This document shows positions 3,837 to 64,000 of a stretch of 64,000 bases of DNA, piece by piece. The stretch's first letter is position 1. Each line of letters opens with the position of its first letter. The notes beneath the pieces are model-generated. The model worked only from the letters and a program-made list of their open reading frames with translations, did no database searches and had not been told where the DNA came from. This DNA is from Candidatus Wallbacteria bacterium (GTDB taxonomy: Bacteria > Muiribacteriota > UBA9980). Location of the stretch: NCBI GenBank assembly GCA_041441465.1, contig JASDSY010000032.1, positions 66,539 to 130,538 on the forward strand, given 5' to 3'. The position numbers and the translations under genes are program-made.

Positions 3837-3867
3837 ATTAAATATTTATTGTCTTTTTCAATTTCAA

Positions 3868-3958: not shown

Positions 3959-3991
3959 AATAAGGCGCCATAGAAACCTATAAAAATAAAA

Positions 3992-10615: not shown

Positions 10616-10828
10616 TTGTTTTTACTGCCGGCTGATAATGCATTGATTGTTATAAGTTAGTTAGGTTTTTTACAAATTCTCACGGAATAAATCATATTTA
10701 AGAACACTTTTAAAAAGTGTCTGCATATCTTTATGCCGATTGAATTATGAATTATGCGCGGCATTTTTACCGGAATTTTTATATGTTAATAAGAATTATA
10801 TAATTTAAAATACTGCAAGTTTTATGTT

Positions 10829-18692: not shown

Positions 18693-18792
18693 ATTTTTTC
18701 CTCTTGTTATTTATTTATTTTGTTAATCGTATCAGGCAGTGACTACGTTTATTAATAGAATTATGCTTTTGAATAAAAATTATCACCGTTGA

Positions 18793-24290: not shown

Positions 24291-24291
24291 A

Positions 24292-25773: not shown

Positions 25774-25793
25774 TAAAAGAAGGTGCGGAAAAT

Positions 25794-26912: not shown

Positions 26913-26971
26913 CAGCGGCTGATTTCTTTAATTGCATTCATACAGCACATTTTTTAAGGAGGCAACAATTC

Positions 26972-29627: not shown

Positions 29628-30988
29628 TGGAAAACCAGAAAAATTCAGCTGCGGCGCTTGAACTTAAGACTCAAAGCGTTGGCAAGCTTCTTCTAAAATA
29701 TTCAATTCCGACCATTGTTGGAATGATGGTATTCGCGTTTTATAATATCATAGACCGTATTTTTATAGGGCGCGCCGTTGGCAGTATGGGAATTGCAGCT
29801 GTTGGCATTACTTATCCTATATTTATGATATTGATAGCGTTTGGAATGCTTGTCGGTATAGGAGCCGGTACTCTTGTTTCAATAAAGCTCGGCGCCGGAC
29901 ACCGTGACGAAGCGGAAAAAATTCTTGGCAATGCCCTGACCGTACTGATTATACTTAGCGTTATTTCAACAATCGCAGGGCTTTTTTATCTTGAAAATAT
30001 TTTATTGGCATTTGGCGCGAGTCAAAACACGCTGGGGTACGCATGCGATTTCATGCGCATAATTTTTTTAGGGATAATATTTTCATTTGTGGCTATGGGG
30101 CTCAATAATGTTATACGCGCCGAAGGAAATCCTGGATTGGCCATGGGAACGATGCTGATTGGCTCTATTATAAATATTTTATTGAATCCGCTGTTTATAT
30201 TTGTATTCAAATTAGGAGTTGCCGGTTCTGCGCTTGCGACGCTTGTTTCTAATTTAGTATCAAGCGCGTGGGTCATCTGGCACTTTACCCGCGGAAAAAG
30301 TAACATAAAATTGCGTGCGCGTAACATGGTTATTGAGTTTTCCATAATAAAACAGATATTTTTCATAGGGCTTTCGCCGTTTATAACACAGCTTGCAGGA
30401 AGCGTTGTCGGTATCGCCATGAATAAAAATATGCTGCTTTATGGCGGCGATATTGGCGTGTCGGCACTTGGAATAATTTCCGGGCTTACTATGTCGCTGA
30501 TGATGCCAATAATTGGGATCAGCCAGGGCGCCCAGCCGATAATCGGATTTAATTATGGCGCCGGTGAGTACGCGAGAGTGAAAAAAGCAATTAATCTTTC
30601 TTGTATATGGGCTACCGCGATTTCTGCGTTGGTTTTTACCGCCGCGTATGCCGCTCCTGAATTCATAATTAAAATTTTTGATTCGCGTACGCCTGAACTT
30701 ATAACAGTAGGTACGCACGGAATGAAAATTTTTATGATAGGCGTTATTTTTCTGGGATTTCAAATTGTAGGCACCAATTATTTTCAAGCTGTGGGAAAGC
30801 CCAAAACTTCGATATTTTTAACGATGCTTCGGCAGATTATTCTTCTGGTGCCTTTTGTTTATATTTTCCCGTATTTTTGGAAACTCGACGGTTTGTGGCT
30901 GGCTATGCCTGCCGCTGATATTATAACGTCGGCAGTTGTTTTTTTTGTTCTTTCGTCTGAAATGAAGCGCTTGCGTAAAGAAATTTAA
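29627..30988 (+). CDS. MATE family efflux transporter
   Basis: 453 aa, 12 TM helices. N-terminal 'LLKYSIPTIVGMMVFAFYNIIDRIFIG' is typical of MATE/NorM. Start overlaps the upstream stop (TAATG). Confidence 0.75.
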   Translation: MENQKNSAAALELKTQSVGKLLLKYSIPTIVGMMVFAFYNIIDRIFIGRAVGSMGIAAVGITYPIFMILIAFGMLVGIGAGTLVSIKLGAGHRDEAEKILGNALTVLIILSVISTIAGLFYLENILLAFGASQNTLGYACDFMRIIFLGIIFSFVAMGLNNVIRAEGNPGLAMGTMLIGSIINILLNPLFIFVFKLGVAGSALATLVSNLVSSAWVIWHFTRGKSNIKLRARNMVIEFSIIKQIFFIGLSPFITQLAGSVVGIAMNKNMLLYGGDIGVSALGIISGLTMSLMMPIIGISQGAQPIIGFNYGAGEYARVKKAINLSCIWATAISALVFTAAYAAPEFIIKIFDSRTPELITVGTHGMKIFMIGVIFLGFQIVGTNYFQAVGKPKTSIFLTMLRQIILLVPFVYIFPYFWKLDGLWLAMPAADIITSAVVFFVLSSEMKRLRKEI

Positions 30989-41200: not shown

Positions 41201-41324
41201 TTTTACTGCCGCCGCATCCGGCGCATAAAATAATTACCATTCCCAAATATATAAGAAAAATGACCTTGTCCGCTAATTTCATAAAAGGATTTTCCCCTCG
41301 ATTTTTGAGTTGATAGTATATCAC
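38232..41324 (-). CDS. Large surface lipoprotein with ~9-10 tandem Ig-like (Big-type) repeats
   Basis: 1030 aa. Lipobox 'ILCAGCGGS'. An ~95-aa repeat recurs with the consensus '...W.LISG.G.LNG.VY..P....ETAVF.A.Y.ESG..K.A.F.LK...'. Confidence 0.6.
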   Translation of the reverse strand: MIYYQLKNRGENPFMKLADKVIFLIYLGMVIILCAGCGGSKNTSVIPAFPSSEKSVTSKLSFLSEADEEKYYAELEKSLNDKLSAQDSNTAATQPPGLSKIVLSSITDEISTLSSYNLSEKITATALSAGNEPKIITPVWQIYSGGGSISGTVYTSVKKSETVVLTAAHSENGISRLALFRLKVNGLEFISLSRTTAEIQMPAQFNLDSELTSTANYADGSTREISSRDGIIWEVSGGGTLNGTVYTPASNTETAVFTAIYTESGITKKAAFALTINGLRSISLNRATDEIQLPAGYDLGSELIAEAHYSDQSTKEITHSPMLAWTLISGSGTLNGNIYSPPGNTETAIFSASYSESGVSKTAEFILKITEQPSIFLNITTDEIQGGARYDLSKLSIISKFPDGTEQNINNTPETAWTLISGKGNLSGTIYFAPASTETAVFLVSHGGSGISGRAYFRLKVNSLTSISLSKAYDDVCVSSVYDLNSEVKVNAKYSNKKNLDVTHSPELSWKLISGCGILNGSAYAPPAKTETAVFMASYSEAGVTKTAKFKLKTIGLNSIILNKSTDEIQSCSSYDLASNLTVTGRFSDSTSGILTNDPNTSWKLISGKGKFYGTIYTASDTTETAVFLARHQIGGMTKTALFKLKVNALKSIFLSKKTDEIQLPAAYNLCSELIIKAAYSIRATQEVTNSPALKWELVSGKGKLDGPVYITPGNPEKAVIMAAYSESGITKTAKFTLKITEPSTLSVSKTADTTPSCSMYNLSKNIIVTNKLSDGAKKNVTKNQEIKWSLVSGAGIFNENIYTAPAIAETAVFLVRHIKSETANSAYFRLKVKALTSIYLSAPTGETQINTPYDLSANLKIYAKFSNGDTEEITNNPNMTWLLSSGSGNLNGKVYIPSLKAETAVLTAIYTAAGITQNVQFKLKVTLPGSKIQLTGISLNKTTDEVTIGGSYNLNNLTATAKYSDKTTEAVKLNWLIISGGGIITDNIFMAPNNPATIKLMGTLISTDNTVKSTYFSIKISDKERKTIK

Positions 41325-44330: not shown

Positions 44331-44801
44331 ATGTTTCAAAAAGAATCGAAAATTAATAAGAAAACTGAAAATGTGGACGCAATAGTGCACAGCCGGGTTC
44401 CGAAATATACAGTTAAAGATATTTCAGAGATGCTTGGCATGTCGAAACATACTATCCGTTATTATGACAATGAAAATCTGCTTCCCTATGTTTCAAGAAG
44501 CGAAAGCAACATAAGATTATTTTCGGAATATGACATACAATGGCTGAAAACCGTTAACTGCCTGAGATATTCAGGGTTGACTATCGCGCAGATAAAAAAT
44601 TACATTCAAATGTGTCTTCAGGGCGATGAGACTATATCGGAACGCGCTCAGCTTATTTTTCAGCAGGAAAAAATACTCGAGGAAAAAGCGAAGGAAATTA
44701 ACGAACAACTCGAAGTAATAAGGTTTAAAAAAGCTTATTACGAAAAATTAATTATTGAAAAAGGCGTGGACATCTGGAATCCGTTAAACGAAAAAAATTG
44801 A
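44331..44801 (+). CDS. MerR family transcriptional regulator
   Basis: 156 aa. HTH 'YTVKDISEMLGMSKHTIRYYDNENLLP' (MerR signature) and a C-terminal coiled coil. Confidence 0.75.
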   Translation: MFQKESKINKKTENVDAIVHSRVPKYTVKDISEMLGMSKHTIRYYDNENLLPYVSRSESNIRLFSEYDIQWLKTVNCLRYSGLTIAQIKNYIQMCLQGDETISERAQLIFQQEKILEEKAKEINEQLEVIRFKKAYYEKLIIEKGVDIWNPLNEKN

Positions 44802-47989: not shown

Positions 47990-48557
47990 TGGAAAATAAA
48001 AAAAGTTTATTTTTAAATGTTGTGACATCAGATATTAAAGAATCTTCAGTTTTTCTTGTGTTCGCAGGGGAAAAACTGCTGGTGAAAAAAATAAAACCGG
48101 CTATGGCTTTGTTAAATTTTCAGATATTTCAGCATATATAAAAGATATAAAACCCGTAACCACACATTTTATGGGAATTGACAATGAAATTAAGCATTAT
48201 TTTTTTCAGGCGCAAGATTCATTTAAAATTGAAAAAAACGGATTTGAATTTTACGATTTAAGAAGTTTGATGGTTCTTCTGGATCAATCTCAATTCATTT
48301 TTGTTTGCAAATCATCGCAGATATTACACTGGGACAAAACTACAAAATTTTGCGGCGAATGCGGATCAGAAACCAAACATTCACCGTCTGAACGCGCTCA
48401 GCTTATTTTCCAGCAGGAAAAAATACTCGAGGAAAAAGCTAAGGAAATTAATGAACAACTCGAGGTAATAAGGGTTAAAAAAGTTTATTATGAAAATTTA
48501 ATCATTGAAAAAGGCGTGGATATGTGGAATCCTTTTATTGAAAAAGACAGTGATTAA
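47990..48557 (+). pseudogene. Chimeric pseudogene: degenerate partial copy of nudC fused to a copy of the 3' end of the MerR-family gene
   Basis: 47990-48400 translates, with frame breaks and stops, to NudC-like peptide. Examples: 'ESSVFLVFAGEKLLVKK' against NudC 'ESSLFMVFADEKLLVKK', and 'LDQSQFIFVCKSSQILHWDKTTKFCGECGSETKHSPSERA' against NudC 'LDQSQFTMAGKAAQVLYWDKTTKFCGECGRKTKHSESERA'. 48400-48557 is ~90% identical at the DNA level to 44640-44801 (MerR C-terminus, 'SERAQLIFQQEKILEEKAKEINEQLEVIR'). The junction falls at the shared 'SERA' codons. Confidence 0.65.
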
Positions 48558-48779: not shown

Positions 48780-49178
48780 TTATTTTGGGCCATGATAACT
48801 CTGAGAAGTTATGTTAATTTCTGTACAGTCGGTCGAAGTGAGGGCGCCGGCTATGCTTGTTATAGCGCAGTATATTCCGGCCGATACGACGCTGGCTGCA
48901 ATAAAAGACCCTTTATTTGTGCCTCCTGAAACATTAGACAGGTCTTTCTCGTCAAGCTCGCTGTTTGAGTTAATTTTATCAATGAGTTCCTGTCTTGCTT
49001 CGGTAAGGTCATCTTTTGAAAAATTAAAACCGTTCGTGCTGCCGAATTTAATTAAATTTTCCATTACCAGATTTTGATTTTCTTTTTGAAGTTTCTGGAC
49101 CATATTCATATAGTTTTGATGCATTTCTGAGTTTTTTGAGATTGCAGCGAACATTTTTTTTACGGTTTCCTTACTCAT
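48780..49178 (-). CDS. RiPP precursor peptide: Nif11-like leader with double-glycine cleavage motif, lanthipeptide-type core (LanA)
   Basis: 132 aa. The ~86-aa leader (MSKETVKKMFAAISKNSEMH...ELDEKDLSNVSGG) is Nif11/N11P-like and ends in GG. The 45-aa core TNKGSFIAASVVSAGIYCAITSIAGALTSTDCTEINITSQSYHGPK has 7 Ser, 7 Thr and 2 Cys. RBS ggaggg. Immediately downstream of lanM in the same operon. Confidence 0.7.
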   Translation of the reverse strand: MSKETVKKMFAAISKNSEMHQNYMNMVQKLQKENQNLVMENLIKFGSTNGFNFSKDDLTEARQELIDKINSNSELDEKDLSNVSGGTNKGSFIAASVVSAGIYCAITSIAGALTSTDCTEINITSQSYHGPK

Positions 49179-49330
49179 TGAAATCCCTCCATAAATATTG
49201 TCAGTTAAAAGCTATATAATATATTTCTTGAATTAATGTTTTAAAAATGTAAAAATATTTTAACATAAATTGACTATTATTGTCAAAATTAATTTTTAAT
49301 GTAAAAATGGATTTCAGAAAACGATTAAAA

Positions 49331-52300
49331 TTATTGAGGTGACAGTATTGTCGATATTTTATCTCCGGCGGCGATTCGTAAGGCCGTATAACCGATTCCG
49401 GCCAACCCGGTAAATAATCCCGGGATAAATATTGCCTTGGAATCATCGACCGTCAGGGTATATCTGCCGTTTTTTTCTGCCCGGTTGATTATGAAAGAAA
49501 ATTGCTTTCTGGCATCTTTTAGTAACTCATGGCGTTTTAATGTAATTGAAGCTTCTATTAAAAATTCGATCTGGCTTGAATAACCGCAACATAAATGATC
49601 GCGAAAATTTGGTATTGCTTTAAAATTTTTTGAAAATTCAATTGAATTTTCAATATCTATTAAAAATTGCGGAGAGTTTATAATGCGAGATAATTCCAGC
49701 CGTGAAAAACCTATTCCCGGAGCTCCTGAACACCATCCGTGCATAAATGGAACGGTTTCAGAGTTACTTTTATCTTTATTTCTGAAATCAGGCCAGTTTT
49801 GGTAATCGGGCGAGTAGCATGCAGTTTCATAATTACATGCTTCGAGAGCCGCTTCTTTAAAAAGATCATTGTCTGTTATATCATAAACTTTAGCAAGCGC
49901 TAAAGCGTAGCCTGATGCGCCGTGAGCGAACCCGGTAAGCGGCTTATAGGCGTGGGCCGATGGCCAGAGCAACCATTTTTCATATTTGACGTGTTTGGCG
50001 AGTAAATATTTGGCGCACTCTTCCGCAAATTTTAAAAGTTTTTTGTCGCCTGATAATTTATAGAAAGCCACGGCTGTAATTGCGCCTCCTGCAGCTCCTC
50101 CCATTATGTCAAGTTCACTATCGTGAGATAAAATACAGGTTTTAAATAATGCCAGCCCTTTTTTGGCTGATTTTAAAAGTCGGCTTTCGTCAAGATATTT
50201 TCCTGAATTATAAAGAGCCCACAAAATTCCGGATATTCCTGTTGTATAACCGAGCGAATACTTCGCCGCCGAGTTTATCTTGCTTGAATTTTTGATGAAT
50301 TCTAGAAATTCATCGAAACATTTTACTGCAAGTTCGTGATAAGCGCTGTCGCCTGTAATTTTTTCGTATGCCGCTAAAAATAACCCTATTCCAGTGCTTC
50401 CGTCATATAATGTAATATCGGACGGGCCGATATAATTATAATGTCTGACAGGATCGTTTTTTAATGTAAGCCATTGCGGTCTGCCGTTTTTTAATATAAC
50501 ACGGTCAGAGATTGTTTGGGCGATATCACGGGCGGTGCTGATAATTTTTTTATTATTCAATTCCGGCATTTTGGAGGCATTTTCTGTGTTTATAAATTTT
50601 AATTCATTGTTTTGAAAATCGAAGTCAGGAAAACGCGCAGCAAGTGATGCTTCTATTAAGCTCAATTGATATTCCATGTCGCCGCTGCTTAATTTTTCGA
50701 TTTGTATTTTCATTCTTTCAATTGCGCTTTTGATATAATAATCTTCGATTACAATACCGCTCTCGTCATTGACTGAATGGCTGCCGCATGAAAAAATAAA
50801 AAGCGGAATATTCATAAAAAGCACCGAACGTCTTTCGGCGTCATAAATTTTCCAGAGTTTTTCAATGTCTGCCCCGGTTTCTGCATTTAAAAAAGGTTTG
50901 GCCAATCCTTCTGCTTCAATTGAATAAGCGGCGCCGTTTCTCATTAAGCCTGGCGATCTAAGGCGTTCAATCATATCTCCATATATTTGCGATTGTCTTG
51001 GAAGTGAACGCATGTATGCGTCTGAATTTTCTGAAAGTGAACTGATTTCTTTAATAAAACCTTCACGGTCGGATAATATGGTTTTATAATAATCGCTGAA
51101 TCCATTTAATATATCATTTTTGTATTCCATAACGTTCATGAAACTGCCGTTAAAATGAGGCACGTTCGGTGATAGACCTGTGTTTCGGTTTATATATGCT
51201 CGGCGCATTTTATCCGTATTTATGTCAATCCATTCCCTGGTTGAGTAAGGAACGTTATCGTCAGGCGTAAGCGCGCCGTAATCTCTTGAAACGTCTTTTG
51301 AAATTTGAGTCCATAACGGAAGTATGCAAGTTCGGAGGACAGAATCGCCGTCAAGATTAAGATAATTATTTTTGTCAGTGTCGCTAATGTTTTTGTGGTT
51401 GAATGGTTTTACAAGCGGATTTAAAAGGGTTTCAAGATCTATAAATACAGGATCGCAGCCGTCAGCAATAAGGTTTTCCTGATGGAAATCAATTCCGCCG
51501 AGTGTGTAGATAATGGCAAGCAACGCCCCGGCTTTATAATAAAATAAACTGGCGTCTTCGATTTTTTGTAGCGATGAGTTAGTTATCTCTTCGACCCAGG
51601 TATAGCCGTCACCTTCTAAGTGTGTTGGAAGTTTGAATTTAATATCAGGCATTTTTTTTTCGAAGAGTTTGATAATATTCGCCCATAAAGTGTCGGCGTT
51701 TCCGTATCGCGGTTTGTAAAAAAGATTCAGGCCGTTTTGAAATTCAAATTTAATAACGCTTTTTCCATTATTATGGTGATCGGACAGGTCGGCTTTGACT
51801 CTCGAAATGTAACCCGGCTTTTTCGGGACGTTAAATTTTAAGCTTATTTTAGACACATCTTTATTGAGATTTTTGATGACATCGGCAAAATAAAGCGCCT
51901 GTTGAGTGCAAACCGTTGAAATAAGCCGTGCTGCTACCGGATAATTTTTTAAAAAATCGATCCATTCGCCAGAAAGCATTCTTTGACAAAATTCCTGATA
52001 TCGTAGTGATGAATTTTCTCTTAAAGAAGTAAAATTATGGTTATTAAGGAAAATAAAATTATTAAATCTCAGATGATCAAAAGAGGATGTGAGGCAGAGC
52101 GCAAAGTTTTTATTTAAAATATTTAGAATGTATCTTAGCCAGTCTTTTAGCGCGCATTCGCTTAAAAATTGATTGTAATTCGGACAGGTTTTTATGAAAA
52201 TATCATGACATGCCAGAAGCCACGGCGACCATATTTCTTGATAAGGCTCTGGTTTTTCAACTGAAAATGTTTTTATTGGCAGTTTTTTCATGATTTCTTC

Positions 52301-52618
52301 TGTGGAGGCCGGCAGTTTTTCCAGAACGGTGTCGATCAAAACAAGCCATTCCGGAAGTGGGACTGCATTGTTCCAGCTGACTTTACCTAAAAATGGAATG
52401 CATTCAGCCGGGTTTTTACCTAAAAGTTGCATTCTGCGGTTAAATCCTTCGTAATTTCCTCCATGAGAAGTGAGAACGCGCCATCTGGTTAATAGTTCAT
52501 TTTCCTGATTGCGCATATTACAGTCAGCTTCCGCTAAGACTGCCGCACCGGCAATACGTTCGTCGATAAATGCCGCGCCGGAGGCGATATGCTTTTTTTC
52601 TTCATTTGTTAATTTCAT
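49331..52618 (-). CDS. lanM: Class II lanthipeptide synthetase (LanM), ProcM-like
   Basis: 1095 aa. The N-terminal dehydratase region is DUF4135-like. The C-terminal LanC-like cyclase carries 'GFAHGASGYALALA', 'HGWCSGAPGIGFS' and 'DHLCCGYSSQ'. The CCG triad in place of the usual CHG is as I recall for ProcM. Size is typical of LanM. Confidence 0.8.
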   Translation of the reverse strand: MKLTNEEKKHIASGAAFIDERIAGAAVLAEADCNMRNQENELLTRWRVLTSHGGNYEGFNRRMQLLGKNPAECIPFLGKVSWNNAVPLPEWLVLIDTVLEKLPASTEEIMKKLPIKTFSVEKPEPYQEIWSPWLLACHDIFIKTCPNYNQFLSECALKDWLRYILNILNKNFALCLTSSFDHLRFNNFIFLNNHNFTSLRENSSLRYQEFCQRMLSGEWIDFLKNYPVAARLISTVCTQQALYFADVIKNLNKDVSKISLKFNVPKKPGYISRVKADLSDHHNNGKSVIKFEFQNGLNLFYKPRYGNADTLWANIIKLFEKKMPDIKFKLPTHLEGDGYTWVEEITNSSLQKIEDASLFYYKAGALLAIIYTLGGIDFHQENLIADGCDPVFIDLETLLNPLVKPFNHKNISDTDKNNYLNLDGDSVLRTCILPLWTQISKDVSRDYGALTPDDNVPYSTREWIDINTDKMRRAYINRNTGLSPNVPHFNGSFMNVMEYKNDILNGFSDYYKTILSDREGFIKEISSLSENSDAYMRSLPRQSQIYGDMIERLRSPGLMRNGAAYSIEAEGLAKPFLNAETGADIEKLWKIYDAERRSVLFMNIPLFIFSCGSHSVNDESGIVIEDYYIKSAIERMKIQIEKLSSGDMEYQLSLIEASLAARFPDFDFQNNELKFINTENASKMPELNNKKIISTARDIAQTISDRVILKNGRPQWLTLKNDPVRHYNYIGPSDITLYDGSTGIGLFLAAYEKITGDSAYHELAVKCFDEFLEFIKNSSKINSAAKYSLGYTTGISGILWALYNSGKYLDESRLLKSAKKGLALFKTCILSHDSELDIMGGAAGGAITAVAFYKLSGDKKLLKFAEECAKYLLAKHVKYEKWLLWPSAHAYKPLTGFAHGASGYALALAKVYDITDNDLFKEAALEACNYETACYSPDYQNWPDFRNKDKSNSETVPFMHGWCSGAPGIGFSRLELSRIINSPQFLIDIENSIEFSKNFKAIPNFRDHLCCGYSSQIEFLIEASITLKRHELLKDARKQFSFIINRAEKNGRYTLTVDDSKAIFIPGLFTGLAGIGYTALRIAAGDKISTILSPQ

Positions 52619-52661
52619 TGGATCTCTTTGATTAAAAATTTTTTGTCTAATAAAACAAGCT

Positions 52662-53567
52662 TTAGAATAAAATTTTTTTTCTTATTACCTGATTGTATTG
52701 TTCAATTGAGTACTTTGAAAATTTTTTTTTGACCATTTTAAGTCTGGCATGGTTATCATATCTTACCATGAAAATTGCGTAAGGGTATTTTTGGCTGAGC
52801 TCGGTAAGTAAATGACCTCTTATAGAACGCATCTGAAGTGCTATGCCGAGCGCGGCACCCTGATATTGAGGCATTATAAAAATTGAATTGTAACAGATTG
52901 TATTTTCGTCGTAATAGCTGCATATTGCCCAGCCGATAATGTTTTTTCCTGCTTTCAAGCCGAGGCTTATTTCAGGGACTATTACCTTTTCATTGATAAA
53001 AGGTGAAATCCTTTGATCAAAAAAGCCTTGGCCTTCTAATTCGCCCATGAGTTGTTTCTTTTCGGCTGACGGTATATCGGTCCAGCTGAATGTTTCGAAT
53101 CCGTCAGGAAGTTTAGTATATTCCGTTATTGGCATGTCGGCTATGCTTTTATCGCATTTGCAGTAATATAATTCGGGCTCGGCGGGAAGGAATCCGCATT
53201 TATCCAGAAGGTTATTTATTATCGTAACGAAAGGCCGGTTATCAAAATAAAAAGTGCTAATGGTCTTTATTTTGCTTTCACGGCATTGCTGCTCGAAAAA
53301 ATCAATCATTTTTAAAGCAAGGCCGCGGCGGCGGAATTCTTTTTCGATAAATATGGACATTATATCGGCCTTGCCCGGCGTGTTTAATTGGTTAAGGCCG
53401 AGAAGCAAGCCGGCCGGCCGGCCGGCGCGATATAATCCTATAGGGAAAAGCCTGTCATTTATGACATCCATCCAGGCCAGAAACGGCTTATATTGGCCGT
53501 AAGTCATATTATTAAAATGTTGTGTTTCGGATGATCTTAAAAGCTTTATTTCATAATTGCTATGCAT
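52662..53567 (-). CDS. Tandem GNAT-fold acyltransferase-like protein (FemAB/GNAT superfamily), first gene of the lanM operon
   Basis: 301 aa with two GNAT-like halves: 'IFIEKEFRRRGLALKMIDFF' and 'IFIMPQYQGAALGIALQM'. It is 44 bp upstream of lanM on the same strand. Confidence 0.45.
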   Translation of the reverse strand: MHSNYEIKLLRSSETQHFNNMTYGQYKPFLAWMDVINDRLFPIGLYRAGRPAGLLLGLNQLNTPGKADIMSIFIEKEFRRRGLALKMIDFFEQQCRESKIKTISTFYFDNRPFVTIINNLLDKCGFLPAEPELYYCKCDKSIADMPITEYTKLPDGFETFSWTDIPSAEKKQLMGELEGQGFFDQRISPFINEKVIVPEISLGLKAGKNIIGWAICSYYDENTICYNSIFIMPQYQGAALGIALQMRSIRGHLLTELSQKYPYAIFMVRYDNHARLKMVKKKFSKYSIEQYNQVIRKKILF

Positions 53568-53945: not shown

Positions 53946-56675
53946 TTGAAAAAAAAATCGAATACCCGGGGGCATATATGGCTGTTGTATATTAATCGGC
54001 TTGGCACAGGCAATCTTTATCAAAGCACCGAACCGCTCGGGCTTAAGGCACTGGCCGCTTTTGTAGAGGAAAAAGGTTATTCGGCTTATGTTTATTCAGG
54101 TTCCGTTCATGAAGCTGTAAATATGCTTGGAATTACATCTTATAAATGTGATGATGAAACAGCCGGGAAAACTTCAGGCGTGTCGGAAAATATTCCGGAT
54201 GCGGTCGGGCTTTATTGTGATTTTGAAACGCTTTCGGCAGTTGAGAGTTTTTCGCGTTTCATAAAAGAAAACACAGGTATAAAGGTTTTTGTCGGCGGCC
54301 CTCAGGCGGTCGCGCTTGACGAGGGTTTTCTGAAAGCGTCGAAATGTGACGCGGTGGTGCGCGGCGAAGGCGAATATCCGCTTTACGAGCTTCTCGAGTT
54401 TTTTATCAAAGGCATCGGGAAAATCGAAGATATCGCCGGTGTGAGTTATGTTGATTTTTCAGGCAAATATGTCCAAATACCTCAGCGGCCGCCGATCGCT
54501 CAACTCGATCTTCTGCCGGTTAGAAAAAGCGGAATTGACGGTACTGCGCGGAAAATGGCCGGCAATTATTCAATTCTTACAGGGCGCGGCTGCCCTTTCT
54601 CATGCGCCTTCTGCTACGAGGGAAGCGTTTCGCGCGGCGTAAGACTGCGCGGCGTCGAGAACGCTCTTAGCGAAATAAAACAGGCGCTCGAATTTAACCC
54701 TAACATAAAATATATATGGTTTGCGGACGATACTTTTACGCTTAATCCAGCACGCATGGAAGCATTCAGCAAAGGGCTTACGGAATTAAGAAAAAAATAT
54801 GATTTCGTATGGTTTTGCGAATGCCATCCGAGTACGATGATAAAATGGCCTGAAACTTTGCCCATGATGATCGACGCGGGTCTTGTCAGGATGCAAATAG
54901 GCATGGAATCGGGCGACCCTGGAATAATTAAATTATATAAAAAACGCGCTTCTCTTGACGATATCGCCGCTGTCGTTGAGCTGGCTTATAAAAGCGGCCT
55001 GCCGCAGCTTACCGGAAACATGATAATCGGCGGAGCGGCTGAAAACAAAAACACTTTCAAACATACTCTGGCGTTCGCCAAAAAACTTATCGATATAGGC
55101 CCCGGCATGACCGATATTACTTCGACTTTTTTCATTCCATTACCTAAAACCGCTATAACGGAATCGCCTTCGGAATTCGGTATAAAAATTCTCGATCCTG
55201 ATTCATATACTTCAATAGGCGATATGGCTGTCATCGAAACTAAAAGCCTGTCGCGTGAGCGAATTATTACAATGCGGCGCGAATTCACAAGGCAGATTAT
55301 TCTTAAAATGAACTATGTTTATAAAAAGGGACGCGTGCCGTTTCAAAGGATAGTCAATGAGTTTGCCATAAACGGCAATTACTGCCTTGAAAGCAATTGG
55401 TATAAAACCGTTTATTCGCAGGATAAATTCGCTGGCGGTTATTATAAGAAAATGGCCGCAGGTGTTTTTTTTGATAAGAGCCGGATTTCGGACGCGGAAC
55501 TTATGAATCGCTGTCCTGCGGTTTCCGTTCGCCATCTCGAAATGATGACGTTAGACGACGGAATTCCGAAAATCGACGGATATGTCCTTTCGCCGCTCGA
55601 ATACAGCCTTATTTCAAAATGCAGCGGGAATTTTTCGCTTTCGTCGATATTTGAAGAAATCTTTGTTTTTTTTGAACGTAATTATCGCTCGCGAAATGAA
55701 TTTTATCGCACTGCCCTGAAGATAGTGAAAAATTTTGAAAAAAAACTGTGGATCGGCTATTTAAAAAATCAGCCGGATTGTTTGAACTATTGTTCAGAGC
55801 CCGTGGCGTTAGAATTAAATTTATACGGAATTAATAACGGCGAATTAACTCCTTCTGATGTTACTCCTGATTGCGGCCCAAAAATTATCCCGGCGATACA
55901 AAGTATCATAAAAATGAATAATTATTCAGAATTTGACGAATTGCGCCGCACCGTAGAAAAAAAATTAAAAAGCGGCTCTAAAATAGTGACTGGAATAATA
56001 TCTGCGGATTGTTCTAAAACTTCCATTGACGAAATTCAAAAAATAACCGAAATGGCGGTATCGCTTGTCGCTAAATATCCCGGAATTTTTGAGGCATTTT
56101 ATGATGATAAGCAGTTTTACGGTACCGCTTTTGAAATGACCGCAAAATATGAAAGTTACGCTGCCGCCTGGCAGGCTGCTAAGTCAAAAGTTTTAGCCGG
56201 AATGGAGCGCGCCGCCGATAATAAAAAAATAGATTTCAAAACCATACTGGCTCATTTTGAATTACGTGAGTTTAGCGGAGTTAGTTCGGTTTATTATGAC
56301 AAAATATTTTTCGCGCGGCCTTTGCTATATAATTATTTTACGATAATGTCACGCGGAGCTGCTATAAAAACGGCGTTTTTAAATAAAGATGCCGGGCATA
56401 CGGAATCTTCGCTTCGCCCGCAGCGAACTATGGCGATATGGCTGGCGGCTGATTTTTCAGGCGGGTACCCCGTCATCGGCCGTGATGTGCTTTCGCCCCT
56501 GGAGTATGAATTATTGCTTTATTGCACGGGTAAATTGACTCTTGAAAAAATATATGGAATAATGAATGAAAAATTTTCTAAATTTTTTGACGGGTTTAAT
56601 GAGTTAAAACAAACTATAAATAGAGTTCTTTTAGATTTCGAGGAAAAATATTGGATATTTTATTCTCGCATATAG
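53946..56675 (+). CDS. B12-binding radical SAM enzyme (class B rSAM, likely RiPP-tailoring) with PqqD-like RRE motif and a duplicated C-terminal RRE module
   Basis: 909 aa, TTG start. N-terminal Rossmann-like B12-binding region (GLYCDFE...VFVGGPQAV...VVRGEGE). rSAM cluster 'GRGCPFSCAFCYEG' (CxxxCxxC). PqqD-like motif 'IDGYVLSPLEYSLISKCSGNFSL' at aa ~545. Residues ~600-909 repeat the post-core region of the paralogs and end in a second 'YPVIGRDVLSPLEYELLLYCTGKLTL' motif. Confidence 0.7.
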   Translation: MKKKSNTRGHIWLLYINRLGTGNLYQSTEPLGLKALAAFVEEKGYSAYVYSGSVHEAVNMLGITSYKCDDETAGKTSGVSENIPDAVGLYCDFETLSAVESFSRFIKENTGIKVFVGGPQAVALDEGFLKASKCDAVVRGEGEYPLYELLEFFIKGIGKIEDIAGVSYVDFSGKYVQIPQRPPIAQLDLLPVRKSGIDGTARKMAGNYSILTGRGCPFSCAFCYEGSVSRGVRLRGVENALSEIKQALEFNPNIKYIWFADDTFTLNPARMEAFSKGLTELRKKYDFVWFCECHPSTMIKWPETLPMMIDAGLVRMQIGMESGDPGIIKLYKKRASLDDIAAVVELAYKSGLPQLTGNMIIGGAAENKNTFKHTLAFAKKLIDIGPGMTDITSTFFIPLPKTAITESPSEFGIKILDPDSYTSIGDMAVIETKSLSRERIITMRREFTRQIILKMNYVYKKGRVPFQRIVNEFAINGNYCLESNWYKTVYSQDKFAGGYYKKMAAGVFFDKSRISDAELMNRCPAVSVRHLEMMTLDDGIPKIDGYVLSPLEYSLISKCSGNFSLSSIFEEIFVFFERNYRSRNEFYRTALKIVKNFEKKLWIGYLKNQPDCLNYCSEPVALELNLYGINNGELTPSDVTPDCGPKIIPAIQSIIKMNNYSEFDELRRTVEKKLKSGSKIVTGIISADCSKTSIDEIQKITEMAVSLVAKYPGIFEAFYDDKQFYGTAFEMTAKYESYAAAWQAAKSKVLAGMERAADNKKIDFKTILAHFELREFSGVSSVYYDKIFFARPLLYNYFTIMSRGAAIKTAFLNKDAGHTESSLRPQRTMAIWLAADFSGGYPVIGRDVLSPLEYELLLYCTGKLTLEKIYGIMNEKFSKFFDGFNELKQTINRVLLDFEEKYWIFYSRI

Positions 56676-58570: not shown

Positions 58571-60331
58571 ATGGAAGAACTTTCGCGTGAACGGCCGTAT
58601 ATATTGCTTATGTATGTCCAGAGGGCCGTTTATGGAAGAAAATTCGAATTTCTTGGCAACCTTGGAATTTCGTCACTTGCCGCTTACCTTGAAAATAAAG
58701 GTTACAAAGCCAGGGCATTTACCGGCATCACTACCGACGCGGCGGATATTTTCGCCGGTGAGTTTCAAAAATCACCTATAACCGCGGCTGGCTTTTATTG
58801 TGACTACGATAATCAAACGGCTGTTGAGGAAATGAGCCGGCACTTGAAAATGAAATATGGCGTAAAAGTAATTATAGGCGGTCCGCATGCTATAAACCTG
58901 GGTGAGGAATTTATAAGGCGTTCCGGGTGTGATTTCATAGTACGAGGTGACGGAGAGGCCGCGCTTTTTGAGTTAATGGAATATATCGCTGACGGCCGCG
59001 GCGGGCTTGAGAAAATAAGCGGTATTTTATATATTGACGAAAATGGCAGCTTTATAACTAATCCTCCGCGCGATCTTTCGGAATCTGTCGATGAATATCC
59101 TTTCCCGAGTAATTCATTTGAGCTCGGCGGGAGAAAAAGATATAATCTATCGGTAATGGCGGCGCGCGGCTGCCCGTTCCGCTGCGCGTTTTGTTTCGAA
59201 GGCGGCAATACTAAAAAGTTAAGGCCCAGAAGCGTTAAAAAAGTTATCGAGGAAATAAGGACCAGACTTATTGAAAATCCTGAGGCGAATTACTTATGGT
59301 TTGTAGATGATACATTTACGCTTAATTATGATCGCACAGCCGAATTTTGCGAAAGGCTTTCAGAGCTTAGAAAAGAACGCGATTTTGTCTGGTTTTGCGA
59401 AGGTCATGCCTCGCTTCTTGCAAAAAATCCTGGATTGATCAAATTGATGGTAAATTCCGGCATGGTGCGTATGCAGATTGGTATGGAATCAGGATGTCCT
59501 GAATCTCTTAAAAGTTATCATAAACAGGCTACTATTCAGGATATAGAAGAAGTCGCCAGAATATGCGCGGAAGCGGGATTGCCTCAACTTGCCGGCAACT
59601 TCATAATAGGCGGCTCGCATGAAACTCAGGATACTCTTGAACGGACAGCCTCTTTTGTAGAGAGACTCCATGAGATAGCTCCAGGATTAATAGATATATC
59701 GACTACTTTTATAATGCCGCTTCCTAATACCGCTATTTCAAAATCCCCGAGGGATTTTGGCGTAAAAATACTTGATCATGGCTCATATACCACGACCGAG
59801 GATTTTCCTGTCAATGAAACTGATTCGCTTTCAAGGTTCGAAATAAGCGGCGCAGCCAAAAAATTCCTTGTGCGCTGCGTCGACCGGATGGAAAAGATTT
59901 TTAAAGACGGTTTGGTGCCGCGTGAAAAGATAAAAAGACATTTTGAGCTTTCGTTAAAGTACAGTCTTTCAAGCAGCTGGTACAGGTTTATCTATTCGAA
60001 AGACCAGCTTTTAAAACAATATTATGAAATCATGATTTTACGAAATGGTTCTCATTTCGACGAGATCTCGTTTGATAAGATTAACTATTACTATCCGCGC
60101 AGAACTTTTAATGATACCATGTATGACGGATATTTTAATTCTGGCAATTATTTTAATAGAGTCAGCCTTACGGCGATTGAATTTGATATAAGTTTATTAT
60201 GCGACGGCCGTAACCGTGTCGACTCGATTCTTTCCGCCGTATGCCGTAAATACCGCTGCGAAACACCCGAAACTGTTTTGCGCTTGTTGATAAGTATGGA
60301 AAATAAGCGTCTTATTGTTTTTATACCTTAA
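58571..60331 (+). CDS. B12-binding radical SAM enzyme (paralog) with divergent C-terminal RRE-like region
   Basis: 586 aa. 'GFYCDYDNQ...VIIGGPHAI...IVRGDGE', rSAM 'ARGCPFRCAFCFEG', C-terminal 'LTAIEFDISLLCDGRNRVDSI'. Confidence 0.7.
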   Translation: MEELSRERPYILLMYVQRAVYGRKFEFLGNLGISSLAAYLENKGYKARAFTGITTDAADIFAGEFQKSPITAAGFYCDYDNQTAVEEMSRHLKMKYGVKVIIGGPHAINLGEEFIRRSGCDFIVRGDGEAALFELMEYIADGRGGLEKISGILYIDENGSFITNPPRDLSESVDEYPFPSNSFELGGRKRYNLSVMAARGCPFRCAFCFEGGNTKKLRPRSVKKVIEEIRTRLIENPEANYLWFVDDTFTLNYDRTAEFCERLSELRKERDFVWFCEGHASLLAKNPGLIKLMVNSGMVRMQIGMESGCPESLKSYHKQATIQDIEEVARICAEAGLPQLAGNFIIGGSHETQDTLERTASFVERLHEIAPGLIDISTTFIMPLPNTAISKSPRDFGVKILDHGSYTTTEDFPVNETDSLSRFEISGAAKKFLVRCVDRMEKIFKDGLVPREKIKRHFELSLKYSLSSSWYRFIYSKDQLLKQYYEIMILRNGSHFDEISFDKINYYYPRRTFNDTMYDGYFNSGNYFNRVSLTAIEFDISLLCDGRNRVDSILSAVCRKYRCETPETVLRLLISMENKRLIVFIP

Positions 60332-60380
60332 AAAACACACACTTCCATTCAATTACTTGAGGTAATCAGTGGAAGTGTGG
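60331..60380 (-). terminator. Rho-independent terminator after precursor B, between convergent genes
   Basis: 10-bp stem cacacttcca/tggaagtgtg with an inner attac/gtaat stem. A plus-strand A-run at 60331-60335 supplies the T-run for the minus-strand transcript. Confidence 0.6.
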
Positions 60381-60410
60381 TTTACTGGTCATTTTAGGGT
60401 ACCTTTCTGA

Positions 60411-60689
60411 TTAGTGTTTGGCTGTTTGTATCGATACAAATGCGTAGTCGATACCTACGAACGTAAGTCCGCCGGCTACTTTTTCGAGCTCTTTCTCTGA
60501 AAGTTCGCCTTTCTTGGTTTCTGAAAGCTCTTCAAGGGCTTTTCTGAATTCAGCGATTGTAACTTCATAGCCGTGTTTTTTAGCTTTTTCTAAAAAATCA
60601 GCTTCGCTTTTTGATTGTTTAAGCTCATCAGAGAGTTTTGGATCGCTCTGAATTTTAGCCAGAAGGGCTTTTGCGTTATTTAATGTCAT
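60411..60689 (-). CDS. RiPP precursor peptide: canonical Nif11-type leader, GG motif, 18-aa Cys-free core
   Basis: 92 aa. Leader 'MTLNNAKALLAKIQSDPKLSDELKQSKSEADFLEKAKKHGYEVTIAEFRKALEEL...SEKELEKVAGG' is typical Nif11/N11P. Core 'LTFVGIDYAFVSIQTAKH'. RBS ggagg 7 bp upstream. Confidence 0.7.
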   Translation of the reverse strand: MTLNNAKALLAKIQSDPKLSDELKQSKSEADFLEKAKKHGYEVTIAEFRKALEELSETKKGELSEKELEKVAGGLTFVGIDYAFVSIQTAKH

Positions 60690-60785
60690 GTTGTCACCTC
60701 CTCATAATTTTGTAAGGCTGTCCAAAAACATAATTTTTGAATCAGTCTTTTTTATTGTGTTTTATGTTAGTTCTAAAATATTTTA

Positions 60786-62555
60786 TTATAACTTGCAAAA
60801 TACAACCCAATATCTTGCGTCAAAATTTTTAAGTAATTGCTTTATTTCCTCTAAAAATTCATTTTCGCTTTCGAATCTGCTGCCGAACTTTTCATGAAGA
60901 CTTGTAATTACTTCGTTTAATGTCATTTTTCCGCTGCAATGCAGTAAAAGTTCGAATTCAAGCGGTGAAAGAACATAATCGTCTATTTGCGGATATCCTT
61001 TTCTTATATCGACGATTCTCCAGATTTCGACCGTACGCTGCGGGCGCCAACTCGTTAATTCGCCGGCCGGCACATCCGTTAACCGTCTTGCCGAACCCTG
61101 GCATATAAGTCTGAAATATTCATTTAAAAGCTGGTTTCTTTTAAATACGTTAAGGTACCACATGCTTGTGACGCCGTATTCCGCGGCAATTTTATATTGC
61201 GAAAGTATGGTTTCATAGGGCACTTTATTGTCTTTTAGAATTTTAAGCATTGTTTTCGATATATGCCAGCTGACTTTAACGCGGTTATTGATGACGTCTT
61301 CCGCGCATAATCCATTGACGGAAACTGGAGGGTAATCGTCAAATGATTTTAATTCGTCGTGTTCCGATATTTTTAAACCGAATGCCGCAGGATTGTTTGA
61401 AATGGCGGTTCCGGGGTAAGGCCTTAAAAAACCTGTGGCTATGTCTATAATACCCGGCGCTATATTCAAAAGTTTTTCTGCGAAAGAAATAGTTTCATCT
61501 ATAACTTCTCCGCATTCAAACGGTCCGCCGACTATAAAATTAGTCGCGATTTGCGGCACTTTACATCTAACCGCTTCGCGTACTACGAATTCTATTTCAT
61601 CGAGTGTCGTATTTTTTCCGTAAGCTTCAAGTACTTTCGCACAGCCTGTTTCAACGCCTATCTGCAGCCTTAAAAGTCCGGATTCGGCCATTGATTTAAG
61701 CATTTCAGGCTGCCTCGCCAGCGTACGGACATGACCTTCGCAATACCAGCCTATGTTTCTGTCTTTTCTTAAAATGTTTATTGCCGAGCAAAACTCGCTT
61801 ACCCTTTGAGAATTTAGCGTGAAAGTGTCGTCCATTACGGTTATATATTTTAATCCGTCATTGTTTTCAAGATTGTTTTTTATCTCTTGCGTGACATTAG
61901 CGATGCTTCTGAGTCTTACTTTTTTCTTATGGTTGCTCTGATAGCAGAATGCGCAGGCGAACGGACAGCCGCGCCCGGTAAATATGGTGCCGCCGTAACG
62001 CCTGTCTTTTCGAAGAGAACGATGATACGCCGGAAACGGCAGCGCATCTAATTCTGAAACAGGATCACGCGCATCGTTTATTATGAATTCATTGCTTTTA
62101 TTAAGCCAGCACAAACCCTTAATTTGCTCTGGCACTCCTTTTGAATGGACGATGAAATCAAGCAATTCAGGCAGCGTTTCCTCCGCTTCGCCCCGTACTA
62201 TATAATCACATCGTGACTCGCTCAAAAATTTCCCGTCGAGCGCCGCGGCTTGCGGCCCGCCGATAATGACTGTTACTTCATATTTTTCCTTCACGTAAAG
62301 GCATAGTTCCGTAACTGCTGATTTATTTTTATAATCGCATGAAAAACCGACTGCCGCGATTTTATATTCTTTTACATATTTTTCTAAAATATCAGGCACA
62401 TCGCTGGTCAAACCGTGAAAAACCCATGGTTCATAGCCTTTATTTTCGAGGGCGGCCGCCAGGTAAAAAAGCCCGAGACAATCAACCGCGCCATCGTTCT
62501 GGAGCGCATCCGGCCTCTTTACGTTCATAAGCAGTACGCCGTTTTTTTTGTTCAC
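60786..62555 (-). CDS. B12-binding radical SAM enzyme with C-terminal PqqD-like RRE
   Basis: 589 aa. 'GFSCDYKNK...VIIGGPQAA...IVRGEAE', rSAM 'GRGCPFACAFCYQS', C-terminal 'YPQIDDYVLSPLEFELLLHCSGKMTLNEV'. Confidence 0.75.
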   Translation of the reverse strand: MNKKNGVLLMNVKRPDALQNDGAVDCLGLFYLAAALENKGYEPWVFHGLTSDVPDILEKYVKEYKIAAVGFSCDYKNKSAVTELCLYVKEKYEVTVIIGGPQAAALDGKFLSESRCDYIVRGEAEETLPELLDFIVHSKGVPEQIKGLCWLNKSNEFIINDARDPVSELDALPFPAYHRSLRKDRRYGGTIFTGRGCPFACAFCYQSNHKKKVRLRSIANVTQEIKNNLENNDGLKYITVMDDTFTLNSQRVSEFCSAINILRKDRNIGWYCEGHVRTLARQPEMLKSMAESGLLRLQIGVETGCAKVLEAYGKNTTLDEIEFVVREAVRCKVPQIATNFIVGGPFECGEVIDETISFAEKLLNIAPGIIDIATGFLRPYPGTAISNNPAAFGLKISEHDELKSFDDYPPVSVNGLCAEDVINNRVKVSWHISKTMLKILKDNKVPYETILSQYKIAAEYGVTSMWYLNVFKRNQLLNEYFRLICQGSARRLTDVPAGELTSWRPQRTVEIWRIVDIRKGYPQIDDYVLSPLEFELLLHCSGKMTLNEVITSLHEKFGSRFESENEFLEEIKQLLKNFDARYWVVFCKL

Positions 62556-62747: not shown

Positions 62748-64000
62748 TTAAAACGGCGCGTATGCAAGCCAGTATTTCTGTTCGAATTTTTTTAATATAT
62801 TCATAGCCTCTTCATTGAATTCCGATTCACTGTCAAAAAGCCGCCCGAATTTTTCACGGACTTTGTCGAGCACCTGTTTTAGTTTTAATTTTCCTGTCGA
62901 ATATAGAAGCAGCTCAAACTCTAAAGGCGAAAGCACGTCCTTGCCGATTTTCGGATAGCCTTCGCTGAAATCGACATCGTGCCACATTTCCATTATCCTC
63001 TGCGGACGCCAGCCGAGAATTTCGTTCTCGTGAATATCGAGCGATCTTTTGACAGCATTTCTCGCTATTAAAGTGTAATAGCCGCGGACAAACGGAATTG
63101 TGTTATATACCGCCATGTGCCATACTGATTGCGCGCCGTAGCCGTAATCGCGGAAGCAGTCGACGATTCTTTCATGCGGTACCTTGCCGTCTTTGAATAA
63201 TTTAATCATTGTGTCAAGTATATGCTGCATCAGTTCGTTTTGCGCTGCCGCGATTTCCTCGCGGTTCATGAAATCAGTTTGAGTGACTGGAAAGTCCGAA
63301 AATACGGTAGAACCTTGCGGATCGACGATTTTTAATCCGAATTTTTCAGGGCAGTGTGTTATTTCAGTCGATGGATACGGCATAAGCGGACTGATGCCGA
63401 GTATTATCACTCCCGGCGCGAGATTCAGAAGTTTTTCGGCGAATTTTTTGTTTTCTTCGAGAATTTCACGGTTTTCAAACGGCCCGCCCGTTATGAAAAA
63501 ACCGATCATCTGATGAACGCCTTCGCGGGCAGACATTTTAACCGCTTCTTCAATTTCGGCGAGCGTAGTTCTTTTACCGTAAGCGTCAAGCACCTTTTGC
63601 GAACCTGATTCGATGCCGACCTGCATTTTTATCATGCCGGCTTTTGTCATTTCCGCGAGCAGGCCCGGATATTTTATCAGCTGCTTTACGTGGCCTTCAC
63701 AAAACCAGACGAAATTTCTTTTTTTTCTTATTTCGGTCAGCCCTGCGCATAGTTCCATTACTCTTTCCCTGGACATTATCAGCGTGTCATCGGCAAAAAC
63801 TATATAATTTAAAGATGGTTCGTTATCGAGAACCATCTTTATATGCTCTAAAACTTTATCAACGCTTCTCAGCCGGACTTTGCGTTTCAGCGACCCTTCA
63901 TGACAGAATGCGCATGAAAACGGGCAACCGCGTCCGGATTGTATGTAAACGCTTTTTAATTCGGGTTTATTTACCCATTTATGAAATGCAGGAAGCGGCA
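62748..64000 (-). CDS. B12-binding radical SAM enzyme with C-terminal RRE, N-terminus beyond the window end
   Basis: The listed ORF (62748-63836) starts at an internal Met. The same frame stays open to the window edge and encodes '...GRGCPFSCAFCHEGSLKRKVRLRSVDKVLEHIK-MVLDNEPS...'. C-terminal 'YPKIGKDVLSPLEFELLLYSTGKLKLKQV'. Confidence 0.7.
   Translation of the reverse strand, partial: PLPAFHKWVNKPELKSVYIQSGRGCPFSCAFCHEGSLKRKVRLRSVDKVLEHIKMVLDNEPSLNYIVFADDTLIMSRERVMELCAGLTEIRKKRNFVWFCEGHVKQLIKYPGLLAEMTKAGMIKMQVGIESGSQKVLDAYGKRTTLAEIEEAVKMSAREGVHQMIGFFITGGPFENREILEENKKFAEKLLNLAPGVIILGISPLMPYPSTEITHCPEKFGLKIVDPQGSTVFSDFPVTQTDFMNREEIAAAQNELMQHILDTMIKLFKDGKVPHERIVDCFRDYGYGAQSVWHMAVYNTIPFVRGYYTLIARNAVKRSLDIHENEILGWRPQRIMEMWHDVDFSEGYPKIGKDVLSPLEFELLLYSTGKLKLKQVLDKVREKFGRLFDSESEFNEEAMNILKKFEQKYWLAYAPF

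Follow-up and report, generated by a model that had tools for sequence, protein, structure and literature searches.

The locus and its precursor gene

In this work, we focused on a short gene of a Candidatus Wallbacteria bacterium, which encodes the precursor of a peptide that is made by the ribosome and modified after translation (RiPP), and on the cobalamin-dependent radical S-adenosylmethionine enzymes (B12-rSAMs) encoded on both sides of it. The window, i.e. the whole stretch of DNA analysed, comprises 64,000 nucleotides (assembly GCA_041441465.1, contig JASDSY010000032.1, positions 66,539 to 130,538 of the forward strand). The genes and features found at the locus are the following, in coordinates of the window, the enzymes being designated by their orthogroups.

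53946..56675, plus strand: B12-rSAM of orthogroup F (rSAM1, 909 amino acids (aa)), PF02310 and PF04055
56687..58486, plus strand: B12-rSAM of orthogroup E (rSAM2), PF02310 and PF04055
58571..60331, plus strand: B12-rSAM of orthogroup D (rSAM3), convergent with the precursor gene, PF02310 and PF04055
about 60330..60383, minus strand: terminator-like hairpin with U-run (-24.4 kcal/mol, z = -3.2 against shuffles)
60411..60689, minus strand: gene of the precursor peptide, 92 aa plus stop with an ATG start, encoding a Nif11 leader and an 18-aa core
60414..60467, minus strand: core LTFVGIDYAFVSIQTAKH, 18 aa, Cys-free, i.e. the residues after VAGG
60468..60689, minus strand: leader, residues 1-74, VAGG at its end, delimited by Pfam and NCBIfam coverage and by alignment
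60697..60702, minus strand: Shine-Dalgarno sequence AGGAGG, 7 nt upstream of the precursor ATG, as read from the sequence
60786..62555, minus strand: B12-rSAM of orthogroup C (rSAM4), directly upstream of the precursor gene, PF02310 and PF04055
about 60789-61073, minus strand: C-terminal domain of enzyme C resembling a RiPP recognition element (RRE), from its predicted fold
62748..64000, minus strand: B12-rSAM of orthogroup B (rSAM5), cut by the window end, recognised by its Radical_SAM part (CPFSCAFC), frame open to the edge

The open reading frame (ORF) 60411-60689(-) is a genuine Nif11-leader RiPP precursor. Its full 92-aa translation, MTLNNAKALLAKIQSDPKLSDELKQSKSEADFLEKAKKHGYEVTIAEFRKALEELSETKKGELSEKELEKVAGGLTFVGIDYAFVSIQTAKH, scored 48.9 bits against Pfam PF07862 (Nif11; cut-off 23.8, residues 1-48 covered) and 55.1 bits against NCBIfam TIGR03798 (leader_Nif11; cut-off 32.3, residues 1-74 covered), which bears out the textbook Nif11 leader announced in the original prediction. 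A Gly-Gly-type motif, VAGG (residues 71-74), divides the peptide into the leader MTLNNAKALLAKIQSDPKLSDELKQSKSEADFLEKAKKHGYEVTIAEFRKALEELSETKKGELSEKELEKVAGG and the core LTFVGIDYAFVSIQTAKH, which is followed by the stop codon; the last leader residue (G74) is invariant in an alignment of 13 homologues and the residue before it is G, A or V. As had been stated, the 18-aa core has no Cys and is unable to form Cys-based bridges. No other copy of the precursor or of its core was found in the window.

On the minus strand, A, B, C and the precursor form one unit, which the precursor gene closes and on which D, E and F converge. It had been described as a lone minus-strand gene embedded among the enzymes; it is instead co-directional with rSAM4 and rSAM5 and lies directly downstream of them, separated from the rSAM C gene by 96 nt. 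The ribosome-binding site and the terminator hairpin attributed to it are present, but a scan of this 96-nt gap detected no sigma-70-like promoter, so that a promoter of its own is not supported. The hairpin, which a simple terminator scanner missed, lies 30-80 nt past the precursor stop codon. As the precursor and rSAM D genes converge on it from either side, it may act in both directions.

Cobalamin-dependent radical SAM enzymes flanking the precursor

B12-rSAM genes do lie on both sides of the precursor, as originally noted. The B12-binding (PF02310) and Radical_SAM (PF04055) domains were both above cut-off in the four complete neighbours F, E, D and C, and the fifth gene, of orthogroup B, was recognised by its Radical_SAM region, the only part visible in the window, where its N-terminal part is lacking. 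On a longer contig (L001), this gene is complete (586 aa) and a sixth rSAM, of orthogroup A (603 aa), lies beyond the window end. Pairwise identity among the six Wallbacteria paralogues is 34-42%, and each has a one-to-one orthologue at 49-79% identity in a related metagenome-assembled genome (MAG; L010), in Heliomicrobium and in a Clostridia MAG. Having six to seven non-redundant paralogues with one-to-one orthologues argues for site-specific rather than iterative enzymes.

The arrangement A-B-C-precursor holds in nearly all loci, and is followed by D, E and F in convergent or co-directional orientation. Orthogroups A to E are present wherever the locus context is complete, and F and an extra E paralogue occur in some lineages. 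Acetobacterium-type clusters have A and B fused (1196 aa) and no F, whereas the Wallbacteria relatives have the extra E paralogue, giving a total of seven enzymes; the clusters thus contain five to seven B12-rSAM paralogues. All full-length rSAM genes in the window and in the related clusters belong to this same B12-rSAM family, and no other type of rSAM is found between or beside them. The motif CP[FY]xC[ASTV][FY]C (CxxxCxxC) is intact in every full-length rSAM examined (31 sequences or fused halves) and is missing only from a 371-aa stand-alone module described below. No SPASM-like extra Cys cluster was found in the rSAM set whose motifs were examined. From these sequence motifs, the enzymes look active.

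The best partial NCBIfam matches of the rSAMs were HpnJ, ApyD, PhpK and BchE. Against TIGR03975, the family of PoyB/C-type RiPP maturation rSAMs, scores were 42.6, 64.3, 60.1 and 70.7 bits (cut-off 281.85), and the best score against the ApyD equivalog NF050148 was 132.4 bits for enzyme C (cut-off 750), over the core rSAM region only.

More distant relatives of the enzymes (about 35% identity) also adjoin Nif11 precursors, the cores of which are unrelated; the present family is thus surrounded by a wider Nif11/B12-rSAM association. One such locus (L059, on the 83.6 kb ENA contig ERZ21831104) is a large RiPP island in which at least six Nif11-type precursors bearing different cores are accompanied by YcaO, a glycosyltransferase, an M16 peptidase and several rSAMs, as well as by a B12-rSAM that shares 35% identity with enzyme C.

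Conservation of the core and distribution of the module

The identical precursor peptide was found on 10 metagenomic contigs, along with 9 further homologues at 58-74% identity, all with an 18-aa Cys-free core. One genome per species was also scanned (185,579 species), using two search patterns, one of which was the core stretch [ST][LIF]VG[VI]DYAF. This yielded 41 loci, with the core present in 40. The ORF is thus conserved in related genomes, a point on which the original prediction could have failed. Hosts included Wallbacteria/UBP16, Synergistia, Vulcanimicrobiota, Desulfobacterales, Thermoclostridium, Lachnospiraceae, many Acetobacterium species, Ca. Formimonas, Sporomusa malonica, Anoxynatronum and Eubacteriaceae, and these groups are anaerobes. 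Cultured strains carrying the cluster are Acetobacterium woodii and other Acetobacterium, S. malonica, Heliomicrobium undosum and Candidatus Formimonas warabiya. A locus of Vicinamibacterales (L057) was rejected as a family member: it matched the leader pattern only, had a different, Cys-containing core and lacked the rSAMs.

A retrieval independent of the core pattern started from homologues of the rSAM just upstream of the precursor (orthogroup C). It returned the same type of core in all three loci (H. undosum, A. woodii (CP002987.1, around 469.8 kb) and the Clostridia MAG), where a Nif11 gene directly follows the orthologous rSAM, the cores being LTFVGIDYAFVGVKTSSG, LSIVGVDYAFTATQTARA and LTIVGVDYAFVAVQTSST.

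Across the family, the core consensus is L[ST][LIF]VG[VI]DYAF[VT][GAS][VTAI][QEK]T followed by 2-4 variable residues, for a total of 17-19 aa. Eleven of the first 15 positions are nearly invariant across at least six phyla, Cys is absent from all homologue cores, and many of these have Lys or Arg at position 17. The invariant residues are spelled by 2-4 codons (Val4 and Ala9 by four each; Leu1, Gly5 and Thr15 by three each) and codon differences over 91 homologue pairs amount to 657 synonymous versus 294 non-synonymous. This synonymous variety at invariant residues, together with the excess of synonymous changes, indicates that purifying selection acts on the peptide.

Variations on the single-precursor arrangement were observed in Acetobacterium. 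In A. wieringae (L033 and L036, about 10000-10780), two tandem precursors with the cores LSIVGVDYAFTATQTARA and LSIVGVDYAFVATETAMS share one enzyme set. In Acetobacterium sp. SMAG_U7836 (L055, 9900-10600, and L058), the precursor region is rearranged: LSIVGMDED... and repeated LSIVG fragments come after the leader, and an intact core without leader lies downstream of the repeats, which may reflect insertion, decay or an assembly artefact.

Enzyme fold and C-terminal domain

The AlphaFold (AF2) model of enzyme C has a predicted local distance difference test score (pLDDT) of 92, and Foldseek matched it to 9ccb, OxsB, CysS, TsrM and TokK with E = 1e-19 to 1e-16. The best fold matches in the PDB, 9ccb at the top and AprD4 also among them, are all at 15-17% identity, and the best PDB matches by sequence are 9ccb (a glutamine C-methyltransferase, QCMT, acting on methyl-coenzyme M reductase, MCR) and CysS. 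At the level of a predicted model, this confirms a class B rSAM and not which reaction it catalyses.

All paralogues end in a conserved module of about 90 aa with the motif LSPLEYELLLxCSGK. Modelled alone, it has a pLDDT of 89, and its predicted structure shows the three-stranded sheet and three helices of the RRE fold. By sequence, Pfam PqqD gave a marginal match to enzyme D (E = 0.14, 13 bits, cut-off 23.4) and nothing for the other five, and a profile of the module against PDB sequences returned noise only; RRE sequences are known to be highly divergent (PMC10635010). The C-terminal module of every paralogue is thus a probable RRE-like leader-recognition domain, as judged from predicted structure. 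This assignment fits with ApyD, the best partial match of enzyme C, being an RRE-containing B12-rSAM. The enzymes also match TigE, through its RRE only.

Enzyme F consists of a normal enzyme of about 600 aa followed by a second C-terminal helical/RRE-like module (residues ~590-909; 55700-56675, plus strand) without radical SAM motif. Over 258 aa, this extension shares 33% identity with the product of the stand-alone 371-aa gene that lies beside F in the Clostridia MAG L017 (15823-16938, minus strand), and may be an extra leader-binding or scaffold subunit.

Proposed pathway

Taken together, these data suggest that the precursor is the substrate of a conserved, uncharacterised RiPP pathway that is matured only by five to seven B12-rSAM paralogues and is mainly C-methylating, a reading that we consider probable as a whole. 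Its best-founded part is the partnership anticipated by the original prediction: the ORF is very probably the dedicated substrate of the surrounding B12-rSAMs, since its core strictly co-occurs with orthologous B12-rSAM sets in other phyla, in loci devoid of the lanthipeptide synthetase LanM encoded nearby in the window.

For the reaction itself, we lean towards C-methylation as the dominant chemistry, by analogy and from sequence relatedness: the nearest relatives QCMT, CysS and ApyD are C-methyltransferases, and every functionally characterised B12-rSAM group contains C-methyltransferases (PMC12931638). In the proposed mechanism, each enzyme would dock on the Nif11 leader through its own predicted RRE-like domain and functionalise one C-H site or residue type among L1, V4, V/I6, D7, Y8, A9, F10, T/V11, Q14 and T15. 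A methyl group would be transferred from methylcobalamin to an unactivated sp3 carbon, e.g. the beta carbon of Val, Ile, Tyr, Phe, Gln or Thr, yielding a hydrophobic peptide, poly-C-methylated and resistant to proteases. Cleavage of the leader after the invariant Gly and export of the product would follow.

Candidate genes for these last steps adjoin the A. woodii cluster, namely a C39 peptidase-containing ABC transporter (PCAT), an HlyD-like protein and an ABC transporter; a gene for a periplasmic binding protein is also adjacent, and the locus of the Clostridia MAG has a C39_2 peptidase gene. Other neighbours of the rSAM cluster were beta-lactamase-fold (PF00144) genes, which flank it on different sides in two Wallbacteria-type loci (L001, 761-4090, and L024), and a C11 clostripain-like peptidase gene adjacent to it in L024, where these neighbours lie at 18626-19807 and 2099-3973; processing or immunity functions are possible for both.

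Several observations weigh against this pathway. None of the six enzymes reached an NCBIfam family cut-off, and their top partial matches include the non-methylating HpnJ and BchE beside methylases. According to a 2026 review, non-methylating B12-rSAMs are indistinguishable from alkylating ones by sequence or structure (PMC12931638). The invariance of the core stretch in the 41-genome set is partly circular, this stretch being itself a search pattern. Neither the scanned ORFs of the window nor the 10 kb that follow its end yielded a leader peptidase or C39 exporter; a C39 exporter for the Wallbacteria precursor may be encoded elsewhere in the genome. Finally, a locus with five enzymes (L029) and one with seven (L019) share the identical core LSLVGVDYAFVGVQTSKK, so that a simple rule of one enzyme per variable residue does not hold. 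A link between core residues and the presence of enzyme F or of the extra E paralogue was looked for in the same comparison and rejected.

A bolder extension can be put forward only tentatively, as we hold it to be less probable than not by a fair distance: the module may define a new RiPP class made by a B12-rSAM battery only, each enzyme having its own C-terminal recognition domain and a fixed task on a nearly invariant core of 15 residues, with dense C-H functionalisation of the peptide. Its conservation in at least six anaerobic phyla would then speak for a single conserved molecular target or a physiological role, and not for the usual competition by bacteriocins. Chemistry beyond methylation might then possibly take place at the invariant Asp-Tyr-Ala-Phe block.

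Alternative explanations

The alternative that survives best keeps the same pairing of precursor and enzymes and supposes that some or all of the B12-rSAMs perform non-methylation chemistry (e.g. C-C or C-O cross-links involving the invariant Tyr8 and Phe10, ring formation or rearrangement), which would give a constrained macrocycle and not a linear poly-methylated peptide. The invariant D-Y-A-F block, with two aromatic residues two positions apart, would suit such cross-links, and the partial matches to HpnJ and BchE, together with OxsB and AprD4 among the top fold matches, point in the same direction. On the other side, C-methyltransferases occur in all characterised B12-rSAM groups (PMC12931638), and the PDB sequence matches QCMT and CysS and the RRE-bearing ApyD are all methylases. 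Moreover, the known peptide rSAMs that cross-link aromatic residues are of the SPASM type, whereas the enzymes found here have no auxiliary Cys cluster. We therefore regard this explanation as unlikely, though worth serious consideration. Cyclopropylglycine formation of the TvgB/TigE type, suggested by the V-G motif, was considered separately and dropped: TvgB and TigE are rSAM-SPASM enzymes and not B12 enzymes, and no SPASM Cys are present here.

A second alternative bears on what the product does, and can coexist with the enzymology proposed above. It supposes a physiological molecule conserved among anaerobes, which would act e.g. as a signal, as a ligand of metals or cofactors or as the precursor of a redox cofactor similar to pyrroloquinoline quinone (PQQ) or mycofactocin, and would not be a bacteriocin. 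Near invariance at 11 of 15 positions over at least six phyla is typical of peptides with a fixed partner, unlike the hypervariable cores of bacteriocins; all hosts are cobamide-using anaerobes, and the periplasmic binding protein gene of A. woodii could be read likewise. However, the Gly-Gly leader and the Acetobacterium C39 ABC exporter with HlyD point to secretion, the patchy and phylum-crossing spread (~40 of 185,579 species) suggests a horizontally moving accessory trait, and tandem precursor variants such as the two of A. wieringae are common for bacteriocins. On balance, such a role appears improbable.

The original prediction had likened the system to polytheonamide-type enzymes, and this did not hold up. 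A proteusin matured by few, iterative PoyB/PoyC-like C-methyltransferases together with epimerisation would account for a core rich in Val, Ile, Thr and Gln, which are the residue types C-methylated in polytheonamides. PoyB and PoyC are indeed listed as B12-rSAM methyltransferases (PMC12931638). Yet the enzymes reach only 43-71 bits against TIGR03975 (cut-off 282), and the leader has no NHLP match, an NCBIfam scan at E <= 0.01 giving only leader_Nif11 and a weak CTB-bacteriocin match. No gene for a B12-less, PoyD-like rSAM epimerase was found in the cluster or in the related loci examined. The six to seven non-redundant paralogues point to site-specific and not iterative enzymes, and the core, of 17-19 aa, is nearly invariant, in contrast to the long and variable cores of proteusins. 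A proteusin is thus very improbable.

The last alternative involves a lanthipeptide unit (48780-53567, minus strand) that abuts rSAM F both in the window and in L001.

48780-49178, minus strand: precursor A of a class II lanthipeptide, 132 aa, VSGG, 46-aa core containing Ser, Thr and Cys
49331-52618, minus strand: LanM (TIGR03897, 699 bits)
52662-53567, minus strand: double-GNAT protein, 301 aa, beside rSAM F

That the B12-rSAMs serve this LanM system, the Nif11 precursor (hereafter precursor B) being a bystander or a second LanM substrate, is hardly credible: LanM, the double GNAT and a Cys-containing precursor do stand directly beside rSAM F in this genome, and the leaders of precursors A and B are weakly similar (E = 8e-4 over 38 aa), but precursor B has no Cys, precursor A has neither a Nif11 match nor any other Pfam match, precursor B always lies directly after orthogroup C, and the rSAM set with precursor B was found without LanM in all other loci examined (including L010, L014-L017 and L024). 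The lanthipeptide and rSAM systems are therefore adjacent but separable.

Comparison with known systems

Among characterised enzymes, ApyD of the aminopyruvatide pathway of Burkholderia thailandensis is likewise an RRE-containing B12-rSAM acting on a ribosomal peptide, in which it methylates the C-beta of a Tyr to give beta-methyltyrosine (PMC10635010). The similarity of enzyme C to it (132 bits) is far below the equivalog cut-off of 750, and apy clusters differ in having a single B12-rSAM with an MNIO (class-defining), a P450 and a methyltransferase, and an unrelated precursor without Nif11 leader. The best sequence relatives of solved structure, QCMT/MgmA (PDB 9ccb) and CysS (PDB 9n1b), are class B C-methyltransferases, QCMT acting on a protein residue; both differ from enzyme C in their low identity (15-17%) and unrelated substrates. 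The alignments of both with enzyme C end within its B12/rSAM core, so that the C-terminal RRE-like module is presumably absent from them.

Polytheonamides and other proteusins (PoyA, PoyB/PoyC) are also ribosomal, their side chains are C-methylated by class B rSAMs and their core composition is similar (Val, Ile, Thr, Gln). Their leader is of the NHLP type and their core has ~49 aa, and they are matured by an rSAM epimerase and two iterative methylases, whereas the module described here has a Nif11 leader, no epimerase, five to seven RRE-bearing paralogues and a near-invariant core of 17-19 aa. In bottromycin biosynthesis, BotRMT1-3 each handle a particular core residue. This system, which we compared by description, resembles ours in using several separate B12-rSAM C-methyltransferases, listed as Csp3-methyltransferases (PMC12931638), on a short core containing Val, Phe and Asp; it differs in having a follower peptide and not a leader, YcaO and others as class-defining enzymes, three rSAMs and an actinomycete host. 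Prochlorosin-type Nif11-leader lanthipeptides have a Nif11-type leader and a Gly-Gly site in common with precursor B, and a LanM system of this kind is encoded beside the present module; however, they have a LanM partner and hypervariable cores, whereas precursor B is Cys-free, has B12-rSAM partners and an almost fixed core.

We know of no described family in which only five to seven RRE-bearing B12-rSAM paralogues act as maturases on a near-invariant core of 17-19 aa. RiPPs tailored by B12-rSAMs are already known (polytheonamides, bottromycins and aminopyruvatides); the most valuable additions made here are the conservation across phyla, the sorting of the enzymes into orthogroups, their RRE-like domains and the occurrence of the cluster in acetogens that have been cultured. 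No publication describing the core or the cluster product was found in searches on VGVDYAF variants, Nif11/B12, Acetobacterium and Wallbacteria themes, subscription journals being mostly outside their coverage, and the only mention retrieved was an antiSMASH 'bacteriocin' entry for Acetobacterium genomes (PMC6925170).

Other features of the window

Beside the lanthipeptide genes, a 128-aa ORF (48171-48557, plus strand) is chimeric. Its N-terminal part is NUDIX zinc-ribbon-like and its C-terminal part corresponds to a copy, 159 nt long and 90% identical, of the 3' end (44637-44795) of a MerR-family gene (44331-44801); it looks like a recombination remnant. Farther away, a secreted-looking protein of 1030 aa (38232-41324, minus strand) is made of about ten ~93-aa repeats (279-nt DNA period) and has no Pfam match. 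An operon on the plus strand (21618-30988) may represent another small-molecule pathway; it encodes a LuxC-like acyl-CoA reductase that carries a fused AMP-binding domain, a LuxE-like acyl-protein synthetase, other AMP-binding proteins, a HATPase_c_2 protein and a MatE exporter. Finally, a 632-aa protein with tetratricopeptide (TPR) repeats and a caspase-like Peptidase_C14 domain (18793-20691, minus strand) is encoded next to a small TPR protein.

Significance

B12-rSAMs form a very large superfamily, most sequence groups of which have no assigned function (PMC12931638), and peptides are practical substrates for establishing their functions. The six to seven diverged paralogues, which would all act on one short, fixed substrate, represent a natural experiment in the site selectivity of class B rSAMs, and the prediction is directly testable, the cluster being present in cultured strains. 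If the product is poly-C-methylated, it would offer a compact analogue of polytheonamide-like chemistry that is accessible in bacteria; any chemistry other than methylation would amount to new enzymology. In either case, the near-invariant core raises the question of a conserved target or function in anaerobes.

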